A stretch of DNA of 64,000 nucleotides. It comes from an uncultured Candidatus Saccharibacteria bacterium. GTDB lineage: Bacteria; Patescibacteriota; Minisyncoccia; Phycocordibacterales; Zambryskibacteraceae. Below are positions 9,044 through 60,256 of this stretch, one piece after another. The stretch covers positions 35,589 to 99,588 of the forward strand of contig CAYFZH010000001.1 in NCBI GenBank assembly GCA_964347785.1, written 5' to 3'. Under the pieces are notes generated by a model. The model was not told the DNA's origin. It made no database searches and saw only the letters and a program-made list of their open reading frames with translations. The number at the start of each line of letters is the position of its first letter. Position 1 is the first letter of the stretch. A program made the translations under genes and the position numbers.

Positions 9044-9093
9044 CCACAAAATAAGAAAAGACTGGAGCAGTCCAGTCTTTTCTTATTTTGTGG
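9044..9093. terminator. Perfect 23-bp-arm palindrome (ccacaaaataagaaaagactgga-gcag-tccagtcttttcttattttgtgg), a bidirectional terminator abutting the 3' end of tRNA-Ala(UGC)
   Basis: Exact inverted repeat with a 4-nt loop. The outer arm includes the tRNA 3' end (..TGG). Confidence 0.6.
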
Positions 9094-9163
9094 ACCCTAC
9101 CGGGATCGAACCGGTCACCTCCTCATTGCAAATGAGGCGCTCTACCAGATGAGCTAAGGGCCC
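9091..9163 (-). tRNA. tRNA-Ala (anticodon UGC)
   Basis: 73-nt cloverleaf folded by hand: acceptor GGGCCCU/AGGGUCC with a G3:U70 pair, D-arm GCUC/GAGC containing GG, anticodon loop UUUGCAA, and T-loop UUCGAUC. CCA is not encoded. Confidence 0.85.
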
Positions 9164-9222
9164 TAAATTTCTAACCGATTGATTCTAGTATAAAAATGGA
9201 GCAAAATAAAGCCCTAATAAAA

Positions 9223-9293
9223 GGGCCCATAGTATAGTAGTAACACGCATCCATGGCATGGATGAGTCCGGAGTGCGATTCTCCGTGGGTCCA
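9223..9293 (+). tRNA. tRNA-Ala (anticodon GGC), noncanonical D- and T-loops
   Basis: 71 nt: acceptor GGGCCCA/UGGGUCC with G3:U70, and anticodon stem CAUCC/GGAUG with loop AUGGCAU. The D-loop lacks the conserved GG and the T-loop reads UGCGAUU (G at position 55). CCA is not encoded. Confidence 0.6.
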
Positions 9294-9317
9294 CAAAAGC
9301 GCGGGGCGCTTTTGTGG
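9291..9317 (+). terminator. Perfect palindrome ccacaaaagcgc-ggg-gcgcttttgtgg including the tRNA-Ala(GGC) 3' end
   Basis: 12-bp arms with a T-tract in the 3' arm. It shares the CCACAAAA/TTTTGTGG outer motif with the palindrome at 9044..9093. Confidence 0.5.
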
Positions 9318-9329
9318 CGTGTTCACAAG

Positions 9330-9405
9330 GGACGATTAGCTCAGTTGGTTAGAGCGTACGATTCACATTCGTAAGGTCACAGGTTCAATTCCTGTATCGT
9401 CCACC
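9330..9405 (+). tRNA. tRNA-Val (anticodon CAC)
   Basis: Acceptor GGACGAU/AUCGUCC fully paired, D-arm GCUC/GAGC with GG, anticodon loop UUCACAU, and T-loop UUCAAUU. Discriminator A followed by CC. Confidence 0.85.
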
Positions 9406-15068: not shown

Positions 15069-15890
15069 ATGTCCAAACTTTCTGTCGGCATTGTCGGTCT
15101 ACCAAACGTGGGGAAGTCCACGCTCTTCAACGCGTTGACGAAGAAGGGGGTGCCAGCGGAGAACTACCCCTTCTGCACCATCGACCCTTCGGTCGGTATA
15201 GTGCCCGTACCCGATGAGAGACTCCAGAAACTCTCTGACCTAAGTAAGTCGAAGAAGACTATCCCTGCGGTAGTAGAGTTCGTCGACATCGCAGGGCTCG
15301 TGAAGGGAGCTTCAGAGGGAGAAGGTCTGGGCAACAAGTTCCTTTCACATATCCGCGAGGTGGATGCGATCATCATGATGGTGCGCACCTTCGAGGACTC
15401 AGACATTATCCATGTGCACAACAAGGTGGATCCGCTCTTCGACATTGAGATTATCAAGATGGAGCTCGAGAAGGCGGGGATAGATAAACCGATTCTCTAC
15501 GTGCTCAATGTCTCTGAAGTCAACGGGCAGATCTCACCAGAATTTAAAGATAAGATCCCCGGACCATATCTCGAAGTGGACCCAGTCTTCGGCACCGGAC
15601 TCGACAAACTCATCGTCGAGGCGTACAAACTCCTCGACCTGATCACCTTCTTCACCACAGGAGAGGACGAGTCGAGGGCGTGGACGACTAAGAGGGATGC
15701 CACTGCACCAGAAGCGGGGAAGAGTATCCACACAGACTTCCAAGAGAAGTTTATCCGCGCCCAAGTAGTCTCGTACGAAGATCTCATTGGCAACGGCTCT
15801 ATGACTAAGGCTCGAGAGAAGGGACTCCTGCGTACAGAAGGTCGAGACTACATCGTGCAGGACGGAGATGTCATAGAATTTTTGATATAA
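15069..15890 (+). CDS. ychF: Ribosome-binding ATPase YchF (Obg-like), short form
   Basis: G1 motif [10 protein letters not shown]3 and G4 motifs, and a C-terminal TGS domain. At 273 aa it is shorter than the typical ~363 aa because the central helical insertion is missing. Confidence 0.85.
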
Positions 15891-15894
15891 GAAA

Positions 15895-15926
15895 ACCGGT
15901 ATCTCGTCGTGTGACGTGATACCGGC
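15895..15926. terminator. Hairpin accggtatc..gataccgg. A T-tract on the minus-strand side makes it the terminator of the minus operon 15930..16693
   Basis: Inverted repeat seen directly in the sequence. It may also terminate ychF. Confidence 0.5.
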
Positions 15927-15929
15927 TGG

Positions 15930-16166
15930 TCAGTGTTGTGTCGGCTTCTTCTTCTTGCCGATGACAATCTTGACCTTACTTTCACCCTTCGCCCCGACGC
16001 AGTCGGGGCACCCAGAGGAGAACTCGATCTTGGCGTAGAGTACTTCGCCAGACCTCTCCTTCTTGTTGAGTTCCTTGCAGGGCTTTGCGGAGAGGAATCT
16101 TTTGAACTCCTTCTCCGTTAGCTCCCGGACTCGCTTGCACTTCTGACAGAAGGAGTGGTAAGTCAT
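15930..16166 (-). CDS. Small zinc-ribbon protein (78 aa; CxxC..CxxC), lysine-rich C-terminus
   Basis: Four Cys arranged as two CxxC pairs. A 4-nt ATGA overlap couples it to the upstream gene. Confidence 0.5.
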   Translation of the reverse strand: MTYHSFCQKCKRVRELTEKEFKRFLSAKPCKELNKKERSGEVLYAKIEFSSGCPDCVGAKGESKVKIVIGKKKKPTQH

Positions 16167-16645
16167 CGCACTCCTCCTGCCAGTCGCTTCGCCACTTCCG
16201 GAGCGGCGAATGCGATCGCCGCGTCCCGGTAGCTACAGTTGACCACGAGGTCAGCCTTCGCTACCTGCTTCGATGAGTTGATCGTCAGATCGATAGTGAC
16301 GATCTTCCCCTTGAAGCAGAAGAAGCAGTCCACTCCGTGGAAGAAGTCCAGAGGACTCCCCACCGCGGTATAGAACTCGAGCCCTGACCAGTCATCGAGC
16401 CCGAGTGCGAGCGCCACACTTGCGTGCAGGTCACTTGCGAATCTCGGCTCGGGGTCAGACGGGTCCCACGGCTGGTGAGACTTCACTGCCCGGAGGCTCT
16501 GATGGAAAGGAACGTACTGACCGTTCCAACTCACCAGAGCGTGACCGATGACTTCTTCCTCCACTTCCGTGCCGGTCGGGCACGTGGGTCTCCAAGACAT
16601 CTCGCTCTCCTCTCTGGTTGCCGGAATGGCTACTATGTCTATCAT
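16163..16645 (-). CDS. Hypothetical protein (about 160 aa), GC-rich, no recognisable domain
   Basis: GC-rich ORF (about 58%) translationally coupled to the zinc-ribbon ORF. The start is uncertain: the ATG at 16645 is preferred over the GTG at 16693, and no SD was seen. Confidence 0.45.
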   Translation of the reverse strand: MIDIVAIPATREESEMSWRPTCPTGTEVEEEVIGHALVSWNGQYVPFHQSLRAVKSHQPWDPSDPEPRFASDLHASVALALGLDDWSGLEFYTAVGSPLDFFHGVDCFFCFKGKIVTIDLTINSSKQVAKADLVVNCSYRDAAIAFAAPEVAKRLAGGVR

Positions 16646-16741
16646 AGCATATTCTATACCTAATGTCAAGTAGCTAAAACAGCCTATAAACACGGCTTAA
16701 GGTGTGTTACTAAAAGGGTCAAATTTTGCTATATTATCTAT

Positions 16742-17281
16742 ATGAACACATCAAACATCGGCAGGTGGTCTATCATCTTCGGGATTATCATCGTACTCAA
16801 CCTCTTCTTCAACTACGCGATCTCGCTCGCTTACAAGGCTCCTGAGTACGAAGCTTTTTGCCCTACATCTCAAGTAGTAACCCAACCAGACAATCAGAAG
16901 TCCTGTACAGACCAAGGTGGTCAGTGGACAGACAACGCTTACTACTCTAAACCTATGCCAGCTAGTGAGGTAGAACCTCGTGGTTACTGCGACCTCCAGT
17001 ACACCTGTAGGCAGGAGTATGAGACTGCCAACAAGACTTACAATCAGAACGTCTTCATCATCCTCGTCGTCCTCGGCGCACTCTCTGTAGCAGTAGGGAA
17101 CTTCTTCGCCGGTAACGAGATCATCTCGAGCGGGCTCTCTCTCGCAGGTGTACTCTCCTTCGTCATCGCCTCAGTGCGTTACTGGAGTTCGGCAAACGAC
17201 ATCATCCGTCTAGTTATCCTTGCTATTGCTCTCGGACTTCTCTTCTGGGTAGCGATGAAGAAATTTGGTAGTAAGAAGTAA
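16742..17281 (+). CDS. Hypothetical membrane protein (179 aa; N-terminal TM, Cys-containing extracytoplasmic segment, 2-3 C-terminal TM helices)
   Basis: Hydrophobicity pattern. An extended -10 (TGCTATATT) lies 6 nt upstream of the ATG. Confidence 0.5.
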   Translation: MNTSNIGRWSIIFGIIIVLNLFFNYAISLAYKAPEYEAFCPTSQVVTQPDNQKSCTDQGGQWTDNAYYSKPMPASEVEPRGYCDLQYTCRQEYETANKTYNQNVFIILVVLGALSVAVGNFFAGNEIISSGLSLAGVLSFVIASVRYWSSANDIIRLVILAIALGLLFWVAMKKFGSKK

Positions 17282-17306: not shown

Positions 17307-19607
17307 GTGAAAGATTACGATCCGAAAGAAATAGAGAAGAAGTGGCAAGCAGAGTGGGAGAAGTCGGAGACCTCTAAGGCTCAAGAAGAAAGCGATGTGC
17401 CCAAGGAGTATCTCTTAGTAGAGTTCCCTTATCCGTCTGGCAACCTCCACGTCGGTCACTGGTACGCTTTCTCTGTGCCTGATATCAAGGCGAGGTTCGA
17501 GAGGATGAGAGGGAAGAACGTCTTTTTCCCTATAGGGTTCGACGCGTTCGGTCTCCCAGCAGAGAACGCAGCTATCAAGCGTGGACTCAACCCTCGTACT
17601 TGGACTCTCGACAACATCGCTTATATGAGAAACCAGCTTCGCTCGATGGGGGCGTCCTTCGACTGGTCTAGGGAGGTTATCACTTGTGAGCCGGAGTACT
17701 ACAAGTGGACACAGTGGCTCTTCCTCCAACTTTTCGACAAGGGTTTGGTCTACCAAGCAGAGAGGGAGGTGAACTGGTGTCCCAAGGACCTGACCGTGCT
17801 TGCTAACGAGCAGGTGATAAACGGTAAGTGCGAGCGTTGCGATACACTAGTCGAGAAGCGCAACATGCTCCAGTGGAATATAAAAATTACAGACTATGCT
17901 GACAGATTGATTGATGATCTCGAGGCGCTTGATTGGCCAAGGGCGATCAAGGAAAGTCAGAAGAACTGGATAGGCAGAAGTGAGGGAGCAGAGATAGAGT
18001 TCTCAATTCTCAATTCTCAATTTTCAGTTAAGGTCTTCACCACTCGACCCGACACAATCTATGGTGCGACTTATATGGTCCTTGCACCGGAGCATGAGCT
18101 GGTAGGGAAATTGAAATCAGAGATTTCTAACTTCTCTGAAGTTGAAGTTTATATCAACAAGACCAAGAACAAGACGGATATAGAGAGAAGTGCGGAGGGT
18201 AAGGAGAAGACAGGTGTCGAGCTCAAGGGAGTAAAAGCTATCAATCCTGCTAACAAAGAGGAGATACCTGTCTTTATCGCAGACTATGTCCTCCCTCACT
18301 ACGGTACGGGAGCGATCATGGCGGTACCTGCAGATGACGAGAGAGATAGAGAATTTGCCGAGGCTTATAAGTTGCAAATTGTTAAGGATTATCCAGAAGC
18401 AGGCTTCGAAGATTTCGGTCATAAGGTGACTAAGTTCAAACTCCGTGACTGGGTGGTCTCGAGGCAACGTTACTGGGGGGTACCGATACCTATGGCGCAT
18501 TGTGAGTCTTGTGGAGTTGTTCGTATACCAGATACTGATCTCCCTGTAGTCTTGCCCGAGATAGACGACTATCTACCCCACGACGACGGCAAGTCACCAC
18601 TTGCGAAGGCAGAATCTTGGGTAAATGTTAAATGTCCGAAGTGTGGAGGCTCGGCACAGAGAGACACAGATACGCTCGACACCTTCGTCGACTCTTCTTG
18701 GTATTACCTTAGATACACGGATCCAAAAAATACTGAAGCCTTCGCCTCTAGAGAACAGCTCGATAAATGGTTGCCCGTAGATCTCTACTCGGGCGGCTCG
18801 GAGCATACTACTATGCACCTTCTCTACTCGCGCTTCTGGCACAAGGCTCTCTATGACTGTGGACTAGTGCCACAGAGCGAACCATATCTCAAGAGGATGA
18901 ACAGAGGTCTCATCATGGGTCCAGATGGGCAGAAGATGAGTAAGTCCAAGGGCAACGTTATCGACCCAGACAAGGAGGTCGAGCGTCTAGGTGCTGACAC
19001 AGTGCGTATGTACCTCGCTTTCATCGGTCCTTACAACGAGGTCGGCTCTTATCCTTGGAACCCAGACGGCGCAGTGGGGGTGAGAAGGTTCCTCGAGAGA
19101 GTTTGGAGATTGGGACAGAAAGTTTCTAATTCTCCACTCCCAATTTCCAATGAATTTTCAATGCATCAGACGATAAAAAAAGTTGGAGAAGAAATTTCGT
19201 CAATGAAGATGAATACAGCAGTCTCTGCCCTGATGATCTTTACTAACGAACTCGACAAGAGAGAGAAAATTTCTCAAGAAGAATACGAAACCTTACTCAA
19301 GCTTCTCGCGCCGTTCGCTCCACACATGTCAGAAGAGCTTTGGCACACGCTGGGCCACACTACATCTATCCACACTGAAATCTGGCCGAAGTGGGATGAA
19401 AGCAAGCTCGTGTCGGACCAAGTTACACTCGTGGTACAGATAGACGGCAAGGTCAGGGCGCAGTTTCTCGCCTCTCCTGAGATGGCAGAAGATGAGGCTT
19501 ACCAGAGAGCACTTGAGTTGCCAGATGTGCAAAAGTGGGTTGGGGATAAGGAGGTCAAAAGGCGGGTCTATGTGAAGGGGAAATTGGTCAATCTGGTGGT
19601 ATCTTGA
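17307..19607 (+). CDS. leuS: Leucyl-tRNA synthetase
   Basis: HIGH (HVGH) and KMSKS motifs, plus CP1 editing-domain motifs (TTRPDT, GTGAIMAVPADDERD). 766 aa. GTG start. Confidence 0.95.
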   Translation: MKDYDPKEIEKKWQAEWEKSETSKAQEESDVPKEYLLVEFPYPSGNLHVGHWYAFSVPDIKARFERMRGKNVFFPIGFDAFGLPAENAAIKRGLNPRTWTLDNIAYMRNQLRSMGASFDWSREVITCEPEYYKWTQWLFLQLFDKGLVYQAEREVNWCPKDLTVLANEQVINGKCERCDTLVEKRNMLQWNIKITDYADRLIDDLEALDWPRAIKESQKNWIGRSEGAEIEFSILNSQFSVKVFTTRPDTIYGATYMVLAPEHELVGKLKSEISNFSEVEVYINKTKNKTDIERSAEGKEKTGVELKGVKAINPANKEEIPVFIADYVLPHYGTGAIMAVPADDERDREFAEAYKLQIVKDYPEAGFEDFGHKVTKFKLRDWVVSRQRYWGVPIPMAHCESCGVVRIPDTDLPVVLPEIDDYLPHDDGKSPLAKAESWVNVKCPKCGGSAQRDTDTLDTFVDSSWYYLRYTDPKNTEAFASREQLDKWLPVDLYSGGSEHTTMHLLYSRFWHKALYDCGLVPQSEPYLKRMNRGLIMGPDGQKMSKSKGNVIDPDKEVERLGADTVRMYLAFIGPYNEVGSYPWNPDGAVGVRRFLERVWRLGQKVSNSPLPISNEFSMHQTIKKVGEEISSMKMNTAVSALMIFTNELDKREKISQEEYETLLKLLAPFAPHMSEELWHTLGHTTSIHTEIWPKWDESKLVSDQVTLVVQIDGKVRAQFLASPEMAEDEAYQRALELPDVQKWVGDKEVKRRVYVKGKLVNLVVS

Positions 19608-33508: not shown

Positions 33509-34159
33509 CTACCAGCTCGGCCACCACGTGACGTTCGCACGCAGTTTCCGGTTGTGGGTGCTGTACGCGTCGACCTCGAGGCGAGCTTCGGCGTTGTCGC
33601 TGAACCGTCTCGCGGCTCCGACGACCACTCCGAGGTAAGGCCGGTGACCCTCTTCCGGCTTCAGTTCGAGCCAGTCGCCAGAAACGCAGAGGTATACGTC
33701 GAGACAGGTCCTCGACTTGTACATCTCGTACGCCTTGTGGTTGGTGACGAGTGCCACTCCGCCGAAGACGCCCGCGATCGGTCGGATGCCGAGCTTGTCG
33801 AGTACCTTCGGTCTCGGCGTTTCCCATGTCATCTGACCACGGACTGCGAGGTTGCTCGAGCGGACAACTCCGCCCTTGCTGTAGCTCACCGGACCGTAGT
33901 CTGAACCGCCCATCTCGTGGACGTCGACCTTCTCGTTGATGGAGAAGCGTTCGACGACGAGGCTTGCCCGAAGGGGCTTGTCGCGGTCGGCGAACATGAT
34001 GCCGATGGACCATGGCTTGATCGGCTCAGCTTCTCCATAGAAGTTGAGATCCGATGACGAGCCCAAGGTGTACACCGTGCCAGTGATGCCGATAGTGCGC
34101 TCCTCGGCCTTGGCCACAGATGCGACCAGCAGGACCAGAAGAATCATGAGATATTTCAC
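33509..34159 (-). CDS. Secreted beta-rich protein with signal peptide and a C-terminal aromatic residue (..VTWWPSW), resembling small outer-membrane beta-barrel proteins
   Basis: GTG start at 34159 with SD GGAGGT. Signal peptide KYLMILLVLLVASVAKA, alternating hydrophobic pattern, and a terminal W. About 58% GC. The ORF-track start at 34228 is an upstream extension. Confidence 0.5.
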   Translation of the reverse strand: MKYLMILLVLLVASVAKAEERTIGITGTVYTLGSSSDLNFYGEAEPIKPWSIGIMFADRDKPLRASLVVERFSINEKVDVHEMGGSDYGPVSYSKGGVVRSSNLAVRGQMTWETPRPKVLDKLGIRPIAGVFGGVALVTNHKAYEMYKSRTCLDVYLCVSGDWLELKPEEGHRPYLGVVVGAARRFSDNAEARLEVDAYSTHNRKLRANVTWWPSW

Positions 34160-59713: not shown

Positions 59714-60256
59714 TCAGGCGATCCGCTCGCGAATCCTGTAGATCCGCTCGCGAATGTCTCGTCTGATGAGTTTGTACATCTCCCCGATGAGGTCCCGCAG
59801 GTGGCGAAACGGCGGAGGCACCTGCTCGCTCTCGTAGTCGAGCGCCGGCCAGATTTGGCCGAGCCTGATGAGCTGGTAGAGCTCACGCAGATCCGAGATG
59901 TTCTTGGCTCGGAGCTTCACATGGTAGTGGCGATCTCTGTTCGAACTGATTTCTTCGAGACTCGCACTCGCCGACATGAGTCGATAGTGGCCGAGACGTC
60001 GACGGGGGGAGAGTCCTTCACCGAAGTTGTCGTAGTAGCTGACCTCCTCGACGAATTCCCGAAGAACCTTCGGAACGTCCGTGAGCAGGTCATCAAGATA
60101 GATGGTGATCTTCCCGTTACCGTAGTCTGCTACCTCGACCTCGTTGATGGTCAGCACATCGTGCTGACGTCGATTGTCACCGCTCCCGCCCCATCGTTGG
60201 GAAACTGAAGCCCCGGCATTCAACAGGGCCTCTCGATTGAGATAGGCTTGCAACAT
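59714..60256 (-). CDS. GC-rich orphan hypothetical protein (180 aa; Arg-rich, C-terminal RIRERI repeats)
   Basis: About 59% GC against about 46% in flanking genes. Opposite strand to all neighbours, with its own terminator. No recognisable domain. Confidence 0.45.
   Translation of the reverse strand: MLQAYLNREALLNAGASVSQRWGGSGDNRRQHDVLTINEVEVADYGNGKITIYLDDLLTDVPKVLREFVEEVSYYDNFGEGLSPRRRLGHYRLMSASASLEEISSNRDRHYHVKLRAKNISDLRELYQLIRLGQIWPALDYESEQVPPPFRHLRDLIGEMYKLIRRDIRERIYRIRERIA

Follow-up and report, generated by a model that had tools for sequence, protein, structure and literature searches.

A conserved two-gene operon of Patescibacteria that may pair a nuclease-like protein with a zinc ribbon, and the predicted folding of its transcript

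Why does a pair of short, unannotated genes stand out in guanine plus cytosine (GC) content from the genes around it, and what might its products do? The question is raised by a 64,000-nucleotide stretch of contig CAYFZH010000001.1 from an uncultured Candidatus Saccharibacteria bacterium (the window, here always the whole of that stretch), on whose minus strand two genes, which we call A and B, lie next to ychF. An earlier note, made from the sequence alone, saw in them a candidate horizontally acquired module or a novel small system. We find that A-B is a conserved Patescibacteria operon, not a recently imported island, and that its codon anomaly, far from marking recent import, is inherited along with the two genes. 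Our explanation as a whole, which we put forward tentatively and as somewhat short of probable, is that A-B is a vertically inherited, single-copy, Patescibacteria-specific operon encoding a nuclease-like protein, A, and its zinc-ribbon partner, B.

Organization of the operon

The two genes form a self-contained minus-strand operon with its own promoter and its own terminator, made up of the following features (window coordinates).

15886..15927, minus strand: intrinsic terminator, a 10+4 bp hairpin and then a U tract, which overlaps the stop codon of the oppositely oriented ychF
15930..16166, minus strand: gene B, 78 aa, a Cys4 zinc ribbon whose start overlaps the stop of A
15930..16634, minus strand: hyper-structured transcript body spanning both coding sequences, from folding against shuffles
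16143..16183, minus strand: predicted hairpin at the B ribosome-binding site (RBS), in which the B Shine-Dalgarno sequence CAGGAGGAGUG pairs with B codons 4-7 CACUCCUUCUG and the AUG lies in the loop
16163..16600, minus strand: gene A, 145 aa (MSWRP...), a member of an unannotated Patescibacteria family
16607..16611, minus strand: gene A RBS, AGGAG, 6 nt 5' of the ATG at 16600
16641..16669, minus strand: putative sigma-70-type promoter, TTGACA at 16669..16664, a 17-nt spacer and TGc-TATGAT at 16646..16641, identified by consensus match

On one side A-B converges with ychF (15069..15890, +); on the other it diverges from an open reading frame (ORF; 16742..17281, +) for a 179-aa membrane protein, after which comes leuS (17307..19607, +). 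The ORF positions and the ATGA overlap bear out a coupled operon on the strand opposite to ychF and convergent with it, as first described; its placement between ychF and leuS holds on the ychF side, but the membrane-protein ORF intervenes before leuS. The promoter matches the consensus at 11 of 12 positions and has the extended -10 TG. Gene A ends at 16163, its TGA stop sharing ATGA with the ATG of B, and AGGAGGAG is located 4 nt 5' of the B start. The terminator hairpin (≈15894..15927) has a folding energy of -21.2 kcal/mol (z -6.64; 0 of 200 shuffles as stable) with UUUUCUUAU directly 3' of it; a consensus scanner missed it, and it was detected by folding against shuffles, so that the terminator ascribed to the operon in the earlier note is confirmed.

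Three starts are candidates for gene A: a mechanical ORF of 176 aa with a GTG start, the 160-aa database call P0001, and the ATG at 16600 that yields 145 aa. The ATG of the 160-aa call sits inside the predicted -10 hexamer TATGAT (16641-16646). We consider the ATG at 16600 the most likely real start because AGGAG lies 6 nt 5' of it, close homologues start equivalently, and the promoter covers 16669..16641. The public annotation of A is thus probably 15 residues too long, and the earlier figure of ≈160 aa gives way to 145 aa, while the remainder of that description of the locus stands apart from the gene intervening before leuS.

Inheritance and distribution

To place the operon among its relatives, we compared the window with homologue loci and contigs, which carry L-numbered names, P-numbers denoting proteins. 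The window, L002, L004, and L010 all have A-B beside ychF and convergent with it; the window, L002, and L004 also have the membrane-protein ORF and leuS next to it, with a sigma factor following in L002 and L004. The synteny comparison that had been proposed earlier thus shows the ychF-adjacent position kept in four genomes. Identities to the window for L002, L004, and L010, respectively, are 82, 65, and 62% for A, 57, 35, and 45% for B, and 79, 65, and 74% for ychF. All three genes yield the same four-taxon ordering, and A and B have diverged in step with ychF and the other neighbors. In deeper lineages, A-B is found amid other housekeeping genes (trmD/rpoB; RNase HII/dnaE; dksA-lspA...tsaE). 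We found no flanking repeats, adjacent or nearby tRNA, integrase, or other mobility genes at the locus. Among the features expected of a genomic island, A-B has the atypical composition but neither absence from relatives nor a conflicting phylogeny, since L002, L004, and L010 have it at the same site.

The A family is large. A word-indexed search with A recovered 36 relatives, and a profile search of 1.84 billion representatives returned 1,304 at E ≤ 1e-3 and 877 at E ≤ 1e-10, or ≈1,300 clusters at 50% identity that, among those seen, belong only to Patescibacteria. A scan of one genome per species gave 68 loci, all from Patescibacteria (a few bins with generic labels show synteny of the candidate phyla radiation (CPR) type), with a single A locus in each genome matched. 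The lineages include Zambryskibacteria, Paceibacteria, Yanofsky-, Kaiser-, Harrison-, Falkow-, Komeili-, Colwell-, and Buchananbacteria, and Microgenomates. Searches of viral contigs, a phage collection, and a plasmid collection found no relatives. The shared site in four genomes, the congruent divergence, and the lack of mobility hallmarks and of phage or plasmid relatives leave the proposed horizontal acquisition without support.

Metagenome-assembled genomes labeled "uncultured Gammaproteobacteria" (L024, L031, L041, L054, and L075) also contain an A gene. These labels look unreliable because the gene order in at least L041, dksA-lspA-A-B-tsaE, is that of the Falkowbacteria loci.

Pfam, NCBIfam, PHROG, and PADLOC gave no significant match to A, searched either as a single protein or with 149 family members, and none to B; among the 149 members, DUF6896 is the sole recurrent library match, and it stays below threshold in the 8 members concerned. 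The earlier suggestion that the genes lack homology is therefore wrong in the face of the 1,304 representatives of A, although it is right that neither protein has a match in these libraries or a sequence match in the PDB. Nor did we find a clear housekeeping homologue of A or B, an outcome that had been named as decisive against a novel module.

Base composition

The GC content at 16001-16500 is 0.584 compared with 0.49 for the window overall, in agreement with the ≈58% against a near-50% background first noticed. Gene A has a GC content of 0.598 (z +3.25 among 54 long window ORFs) with all three codon positions shifted, and GC at third codon positions (GC3) is 0.71 in A and 0.76 in B against a mean of 0.58 ± 0.07 for window ORFs. 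The codon anomaly of A-B is therefore real, and core-like codon usage, which would have spoken against the earlier note, is not seen. The same offset appears in relatives: A and B have GC contents of 0.595 and 0.593 in L002 (neighbors 0.43-0.49) and 0.537 and 0.480 in L004 (neighbors 0.33-0.37; GC3 0.59 and 0.56 against 0.23-0.31), and A in L010 has 0.51 against 0.36-0.38 in its neighbors. Across loci with the short type of B (described below), the excess averages +0.059 and is positive in 23 of 26 (p = 1.3e-5), even in genomes of 35% GC.

These values bear on the idea that A-B is a foreign cassette that recently entered the ychF-leuS interval from a donor richer in GC. Such an origin would account for the shifted codon positions of A, for an autonomous transcription unit on the opposite strand, and for the two further GC-rich minus-strand orphan ORFs that turned up in the window when other such regions were sought, as had been advised. 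It could also account for the identity of A at 4-fold synonymous sites between the window and L002, which is 0.67 compared with 0.37 pooled over six flanking genes (p = 3e-6). However, the operon is found at one and the same site in four genomes, whose GC contents run from 35 to 50% and which show congruent divergence, and repeats, tRNA, mobility genes, and mobile-element homologues are all lacking. In addition, 4-fold synonymous identity between L004 and the window or L002 is 0.24-0.34. Because these sites are saturated and GC3 in L004 nevertheless stays high, the GC excess is maintained and not a remnant of import, and we regard recent acquisition as highly improbable.

Two other sources of the anomaly were considered and rejected. 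An overlapping antisense gene is not indicated, as synonymous shuffles have antisense frames at least as open, and an effect of orientation on GC or folding is not seen in the other minus-strand genes, which have normal GC and normal folding z. An Rfam scan with covariance models gave a single chance miRNA match (E = 0.85) outside the operon; together with the antisense-frame test, it provided no antisense RNA or conserved antisense ORF at A-B.

Folding of the transcript

The A-B transcript of the window is predicted to fold at -315 kcal/mol compared with -266 ± 8 kcal/mol for dinucleotide shuffles (z -6.0). In a comparison using 40 dinucleotide shuffles, A-B has a z of -6.3, and 34 plus-strand window genes range from -2.95 to +2.8. 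With synonymous-codon shuffles, which preserve both the protein and the codon usage, z is -6.8 in the window, -7.6 in L002, and -8.4 in L004; 17 of 18 flanking genes from L002, L004, L009, and L010 lie between -1.9 and +0.65. The codon-permutation and synonymous shuffles exclude an artefact of codon periodicity or of dinucleotide shuffling. The A and B coding sequences are each significantly structured when taken separately. Among short-B loci, the median z is -5.0 and 15 of 24 fall below -3, with extremes of -12.6 (L009) and -10.3 (L123); some loci with A alone are also extreme (L011, z -10.6).

The sole outlier among the 18 flanking genes is a 203-aa ORF in a Zambryskibacteria genome (L009 1812-2423, +), located just 3' of A-B. 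It is very GC-rich and folds at -278 kcal/mol per 612 nt, with a synonymous z of -3.2.

To ask whether particular helices are conserved, we turned to an RNAalifold structure of five orthologous A genes, which comprises 118 pairs in 15 helices. Scored on the same five sequences from which it was derived, this structure has 86.8% of its pair cells paired compared with 81.0 ± 0.9% in shuffles (0 of 500 reach it) and 26 compensatory, double-sided pair changes compared with 14.2 ± 2.7 (0 of 500); in slid controls, 35-45% of cells are paired and double changes number 6-11. When the structure is transferred to 15 members at greater distance, 55.6% of the pairs form compared with 34-45% in slid controls, and only some helices are retained, among them one over the IVTIDLT codons (77%) and the long-range EEE/FF helix (62%). 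A single fixed RNA architecture does not fit these numbers, as helices are only partly kept in the 15 distant members. The conserved feature is therefore mainly the degree of folding, individual helices turning over.

The natural reading is that selection acts at the RNA level, but it may instead act at the DNA level: the sense strand is the more stable in 6 of 10 comparisons, an inconsistent result in which the two strands are about equal. Selection for base pairing, and so for a folded transcript, explains the GC richness and its recurrence across short-B loci better than import does.

At the junction of the genes, the B RBS hairpin has a predicted energy of -27.8 kcal/mol (z -3.0) in the window. 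Equivalent hairpins of differing sequence are predicted in L002, L004, L009, and L010, making five orthologues in all. The A RBS is not locally sequestered (z -0.34). The hairpin may thus be a translational coupling device: because the B RBS is paired and the B start overlaps the A stop, we infer that B would be translated only by ribosomes that have just terminated on A.

RBS-sequestering hairpins and globally folded messages are features of RNA phage MS2 genes and of hok mRNA. A-B shares with these a paired downstream Shine-Dalgarno sequence, a start that overlaps the upstream stop, and a message folded beyond chance. It differs from them in being a chromosomal two-gene operon of a cellular organism, in having excess structure over both coding sequences, and in the way that structure persists across deep divergence, through the choice of synonymous codons, as single helices come and go.

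The folding also raises the idea of a dual-purpose transcript, selected as base-paired RNA as well as message. It might, for example, be an RNA partner, scaffold, or autoregulatory substrate of an A/B complex, or a message shielded by its folding from a single-strand-specific activity of its own products. We consider this improbable; if true, A-B would belong to a new class of module confined to CPR bacteria, either a self-contained ribonucleoprotein or a nuclease system with self-immunity.

Protein B and its link to A

The 78 residues of B include CxxC at 7-10, CPDC at 53-56, and a Lys-rich tail, GKKKKPTQH, and the protein is basic (isoelectric point (pI) 9.7). C7, C10, C53, and C56 are invariant in 15 sequences, which agrees with the earlier description of a 78-aa zinc ribbon with a K-rich tail. 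In the predicted model (predicted local distance difference test score (pLDDT) 76.6), two helices are inserted into a zinc ribbon of four strands, and the two CxxC knuckles sit on beta hairpins and make up a single zinc site; a structure search with it returned no informative structural neighbor. A PDB profile search gave non-significant matches (E ≥ 0.15) to the zinc ribbons of L33, L32, eL42, and Spt4/RpoE'', and the one borderline PHROG match (phrog_6476, E = 0.003) is to a family whose function is not assigned in PHROGs. Sequence searches with B recover only 2 to 5 matches. Profile hidden Markov models built from ORFs adjoining A separate a short type of B (72-87 aa) from a weakly related long type (92-110 aa).

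Of the unique A loci with sequence on both sides, 73 of 115 (63%) have B adjoining A in the same orientation, mostly 3' of it and occasionally upstream (L017, L029, L043, L104, and L107). The lengths of the two proteins co-vary: all 22 loci with short A (≤165 aa) have short B, and all 18 with long A (≥168 aa) have long B. On a 1.1-kb metagenome contig, a single ORF encodes a 260-aa long-A/long-B protein (P0097; L077 138-920, +) that could be a natural fusion but could also be an artefact of assembly or of a frameshift. There is no third conserved partner gene, the commonest neighbor occurring in 9 of the 73 loci. A basic C-terminal tail on A making up for an absent B was looked for and rejected (no difference, p = 0.89). 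With neither protein in a known family and the two linked by adjacency, fusion, co-variation, and coupling, the proposal of a novel small system gains support.

Trm112-type proteins are small zinc-ribbon activator subunits that act as enzyme partners. B resembles them in its N- and C-terminal CxxC knuckles, which would together make up a single zinc site with a helical segment inserted between them, and in its putative enzyme partner.

Predicted fold and possible activity of protein A

Protein A is acidic (pI 5.4). Across 149 divergent members, D85 is invariant and G10, E14, Q43, P47, P50, G89, D91, T102, D104, K111, and A116 are conserved. Within this set, E14, D85, D91, D104, and K111 are nearly invariant, a pattern that looks like an active or metal site; D91 and D104, 13 residues apart, are ≈90% or more conserved.

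The AlphaFold2 model of A (pLDDT 88.7, predicted template modeling score 0.83) features three N-terminal helices followed by strand-helix-strand-strand-strand-helix; E14 lies in helix 1, D91 opens a strand, and D104 comes 13 positions further along. Although the model is confident, it has no clear structural neighbor: the matches are weak, and PD-(D/E)XK families (Hjc, VRR-NUC, and the Bax1 nuclease domain) dominate the hit lists. Like A, these domains measure ≈125-145 aa and have an alpha/beta core and a Glu on the first helix. The G10-x3-E14 of A can be likened to G5-x3-E9 of Hjc, and E14, D91, and D104 mimic E9, D33, and E46-x-K48, with an Asp at a strand start and a second acidic residue 13 positions on, in the next strand, in both proteins. 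At the level of sequence, neither Pfam, NCBIfam, nor PHROG searches with the 149 members revealed similarity to a PD-(D/E)XK family. Alignment of A with a four-sequence Hjc alignment in hhalign reached 0.5% probability, with the G-x3-E helix alone aligned, and a PDB profile search with A gave noise and nothing relevant.

Our best guess is that A is a nuclease-like, metal-dependent enzyme. Small and acidic, it would have an alpha/beta core of restriction-endonuclease-like (PD-(D/E)XK-like) type, hold a divalent metal via E14, D91, and D104, and cut or bind nucleic acid. B, as a basic Cys4 zinc ribbon, would bind A at roughly 1:1 and confer nucleic-acid affinity or control, and the RNA structure across the operon might, as a guess, tune mRNA lifetime or the translation of a potentially harmful enzyme.

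Several observations weigh against this explanation. The canonical Lys of the D...(D/E)-x-K signature is absent from A, its position being occupied by a conserved Thr/Ser (D104-x-T106); K111, conserved five residues past T106, might replace it. The order of elements is beta3-beta4-alpha rather than the canonical beta3-alpha-beta4, and the acidity of A is unusual for a nucleic-acid enzyme. Because of the Thr/Ser, the non-significant alignment with Hjc, and the deviating topology, we keep the enzyme as a working hypothesis rather than a claim of family membership. Among A genes with sequence on both sides, 37% have no recognizable B nearby, so B is not obligatory. Finally, the long-B subfamily shows no GC excess and a median synonymous z of -0.9, with 0 of 20 loci below -3; neither GC excess nor RNA structure is therefore needed for protein function.

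Some of these points would suit a non-catalytic factor: A, as a degenerate nuclease fold or a new fold, would serve jointly with B, in a structural or regulatory capacity, the machinery of translation, transcription, or replication in these reduced genomes. The missing Lys, the acidity of A, and the weak structural matches are consistent with it, as are the neighbors across lineages (leuS, ychF, trmD, rpoB, RNase III, nusB, L32, RNase HII, dnaE, tsaE, dksA, and S16) and the weak matches of B to ribosomal and RNA-polymerase zinc ribbons. However, the near-invariance of E14, D85, D91, D104, and K111 suggests an active or metal site, the neighbors are not conserved and would almost all be housekeeping genes in genomes so small, and every ribosomal or polymerase match of B is non-significant. 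We think a non-catalytic role unlikely.

A further alternative is a reverse-order toxin-antitoxin-like module for addiction or defense, with a nuclease toxin (A) encoded first, a fast-evolving zinc-ribbon antitoxin (B) second, and a structured mRNA that restrains the toxin. A-B has the form of a type II pair, two small co-transcribed, translationally coupled genes that overlap and have their own promoter and terminator. Moreover, B diverges faster than A (identity of 57% versus 82% between the window and L002 and 35% versus 65% for L004), the non-synonymous divergence of A is high relative to synonymous divergence, and the two proteins have opposite charges. The predicted sequestration of the B RBS, the atypical composition, and a location that varies between deeper lineages would also fit. 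The distribution speaks against such a module, being neither patchy, multi-copy, nor linked to mobile elements: there is one locus per genome, four genomes share the ychF site, and no phage, plasmid, or viral homologues were found. Neither A nor B matches a known toxin, antitoxin, or defense family.

A comparable known arrangement is MqsR/MqsA, a reverse-order type II pair that encodes the nuclease-like protein ahead of its small zinc-binding partner and couples the two genes. A-B is similar in its order, with the putatively nuclease-like gene first, in the co-transcription of a small zinc-binding partner, and in the faster evolution of that partner. Unlike MqsA, B has no helix-turn-helix domain, and it has no detectable MqsA similarity; A is unrelated to MqsR/RelE, often occurs alone, and holds a stable position at one locus per genome matched. 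Overall, we find a toxin-antitoxin system rather unlikely and favor the inherited operon with a nuclease-like A and its zinc-ribbon partner.

In the tiny genomes of Patescibacteria, a large share of the lineage-specific genes is uncharacterized, and the A family, with >1,000 clusters, a confident model, and a zinc-ribbon partner, is a concrete target for nucleic-acid biology specific to the CPR. Because the inherited GC anomaly coincides with very strong selection for base pairing over two coding sequences, compositional "islands" can mark selection at the RNA level (possibly the DNA level) rather than horizontal transfer. Hyper-structured coding sequence is unusual for bacterial mRNA, and A-B offers a clear, testable case of synonymous-site selection for mRNA structure in bacteria.

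Other features of the window

The two further GC-rich minus-strand orphan ORFs have no Pfam match. One (33509-34147, GC 0.61, GC3 0.78) lies between rpsI and grpE and encodes ≈212 aa with a signal-peptide-like N terminus; its folding z values, -3.0 with dinucleotide and -2.2 with synonymous shuffles, are among the most negative after A-B. The other (59714-60256, GC 0.57, GC3 0.71, 180 aa) lies between murG and gltX and, with z values of -3.6 and -3.0, combines GC and structure excess as A-B does.

Both housekeeping genes near the operon vary in length. The ychF product is 273 aa in the window and 272 aa in L002, compared with 368 aa in L004 and ≈336 aa in L010; the window/L002 lineage seems to have lost a stretch that separates the G domain from the C-terminal TGS-like domain. 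The leuS product is 766 aa in the window (17307-19607, +) and 911-944 aa in L002 (2615-5350) and L004 (2374-5208), where there is a NUDIX match inside the synthetase. Three tRNA genes at 9090-9405, Ala-TGC (-), Ala-GGC (+), and Val-CAC (+), are unrelated to A-B.
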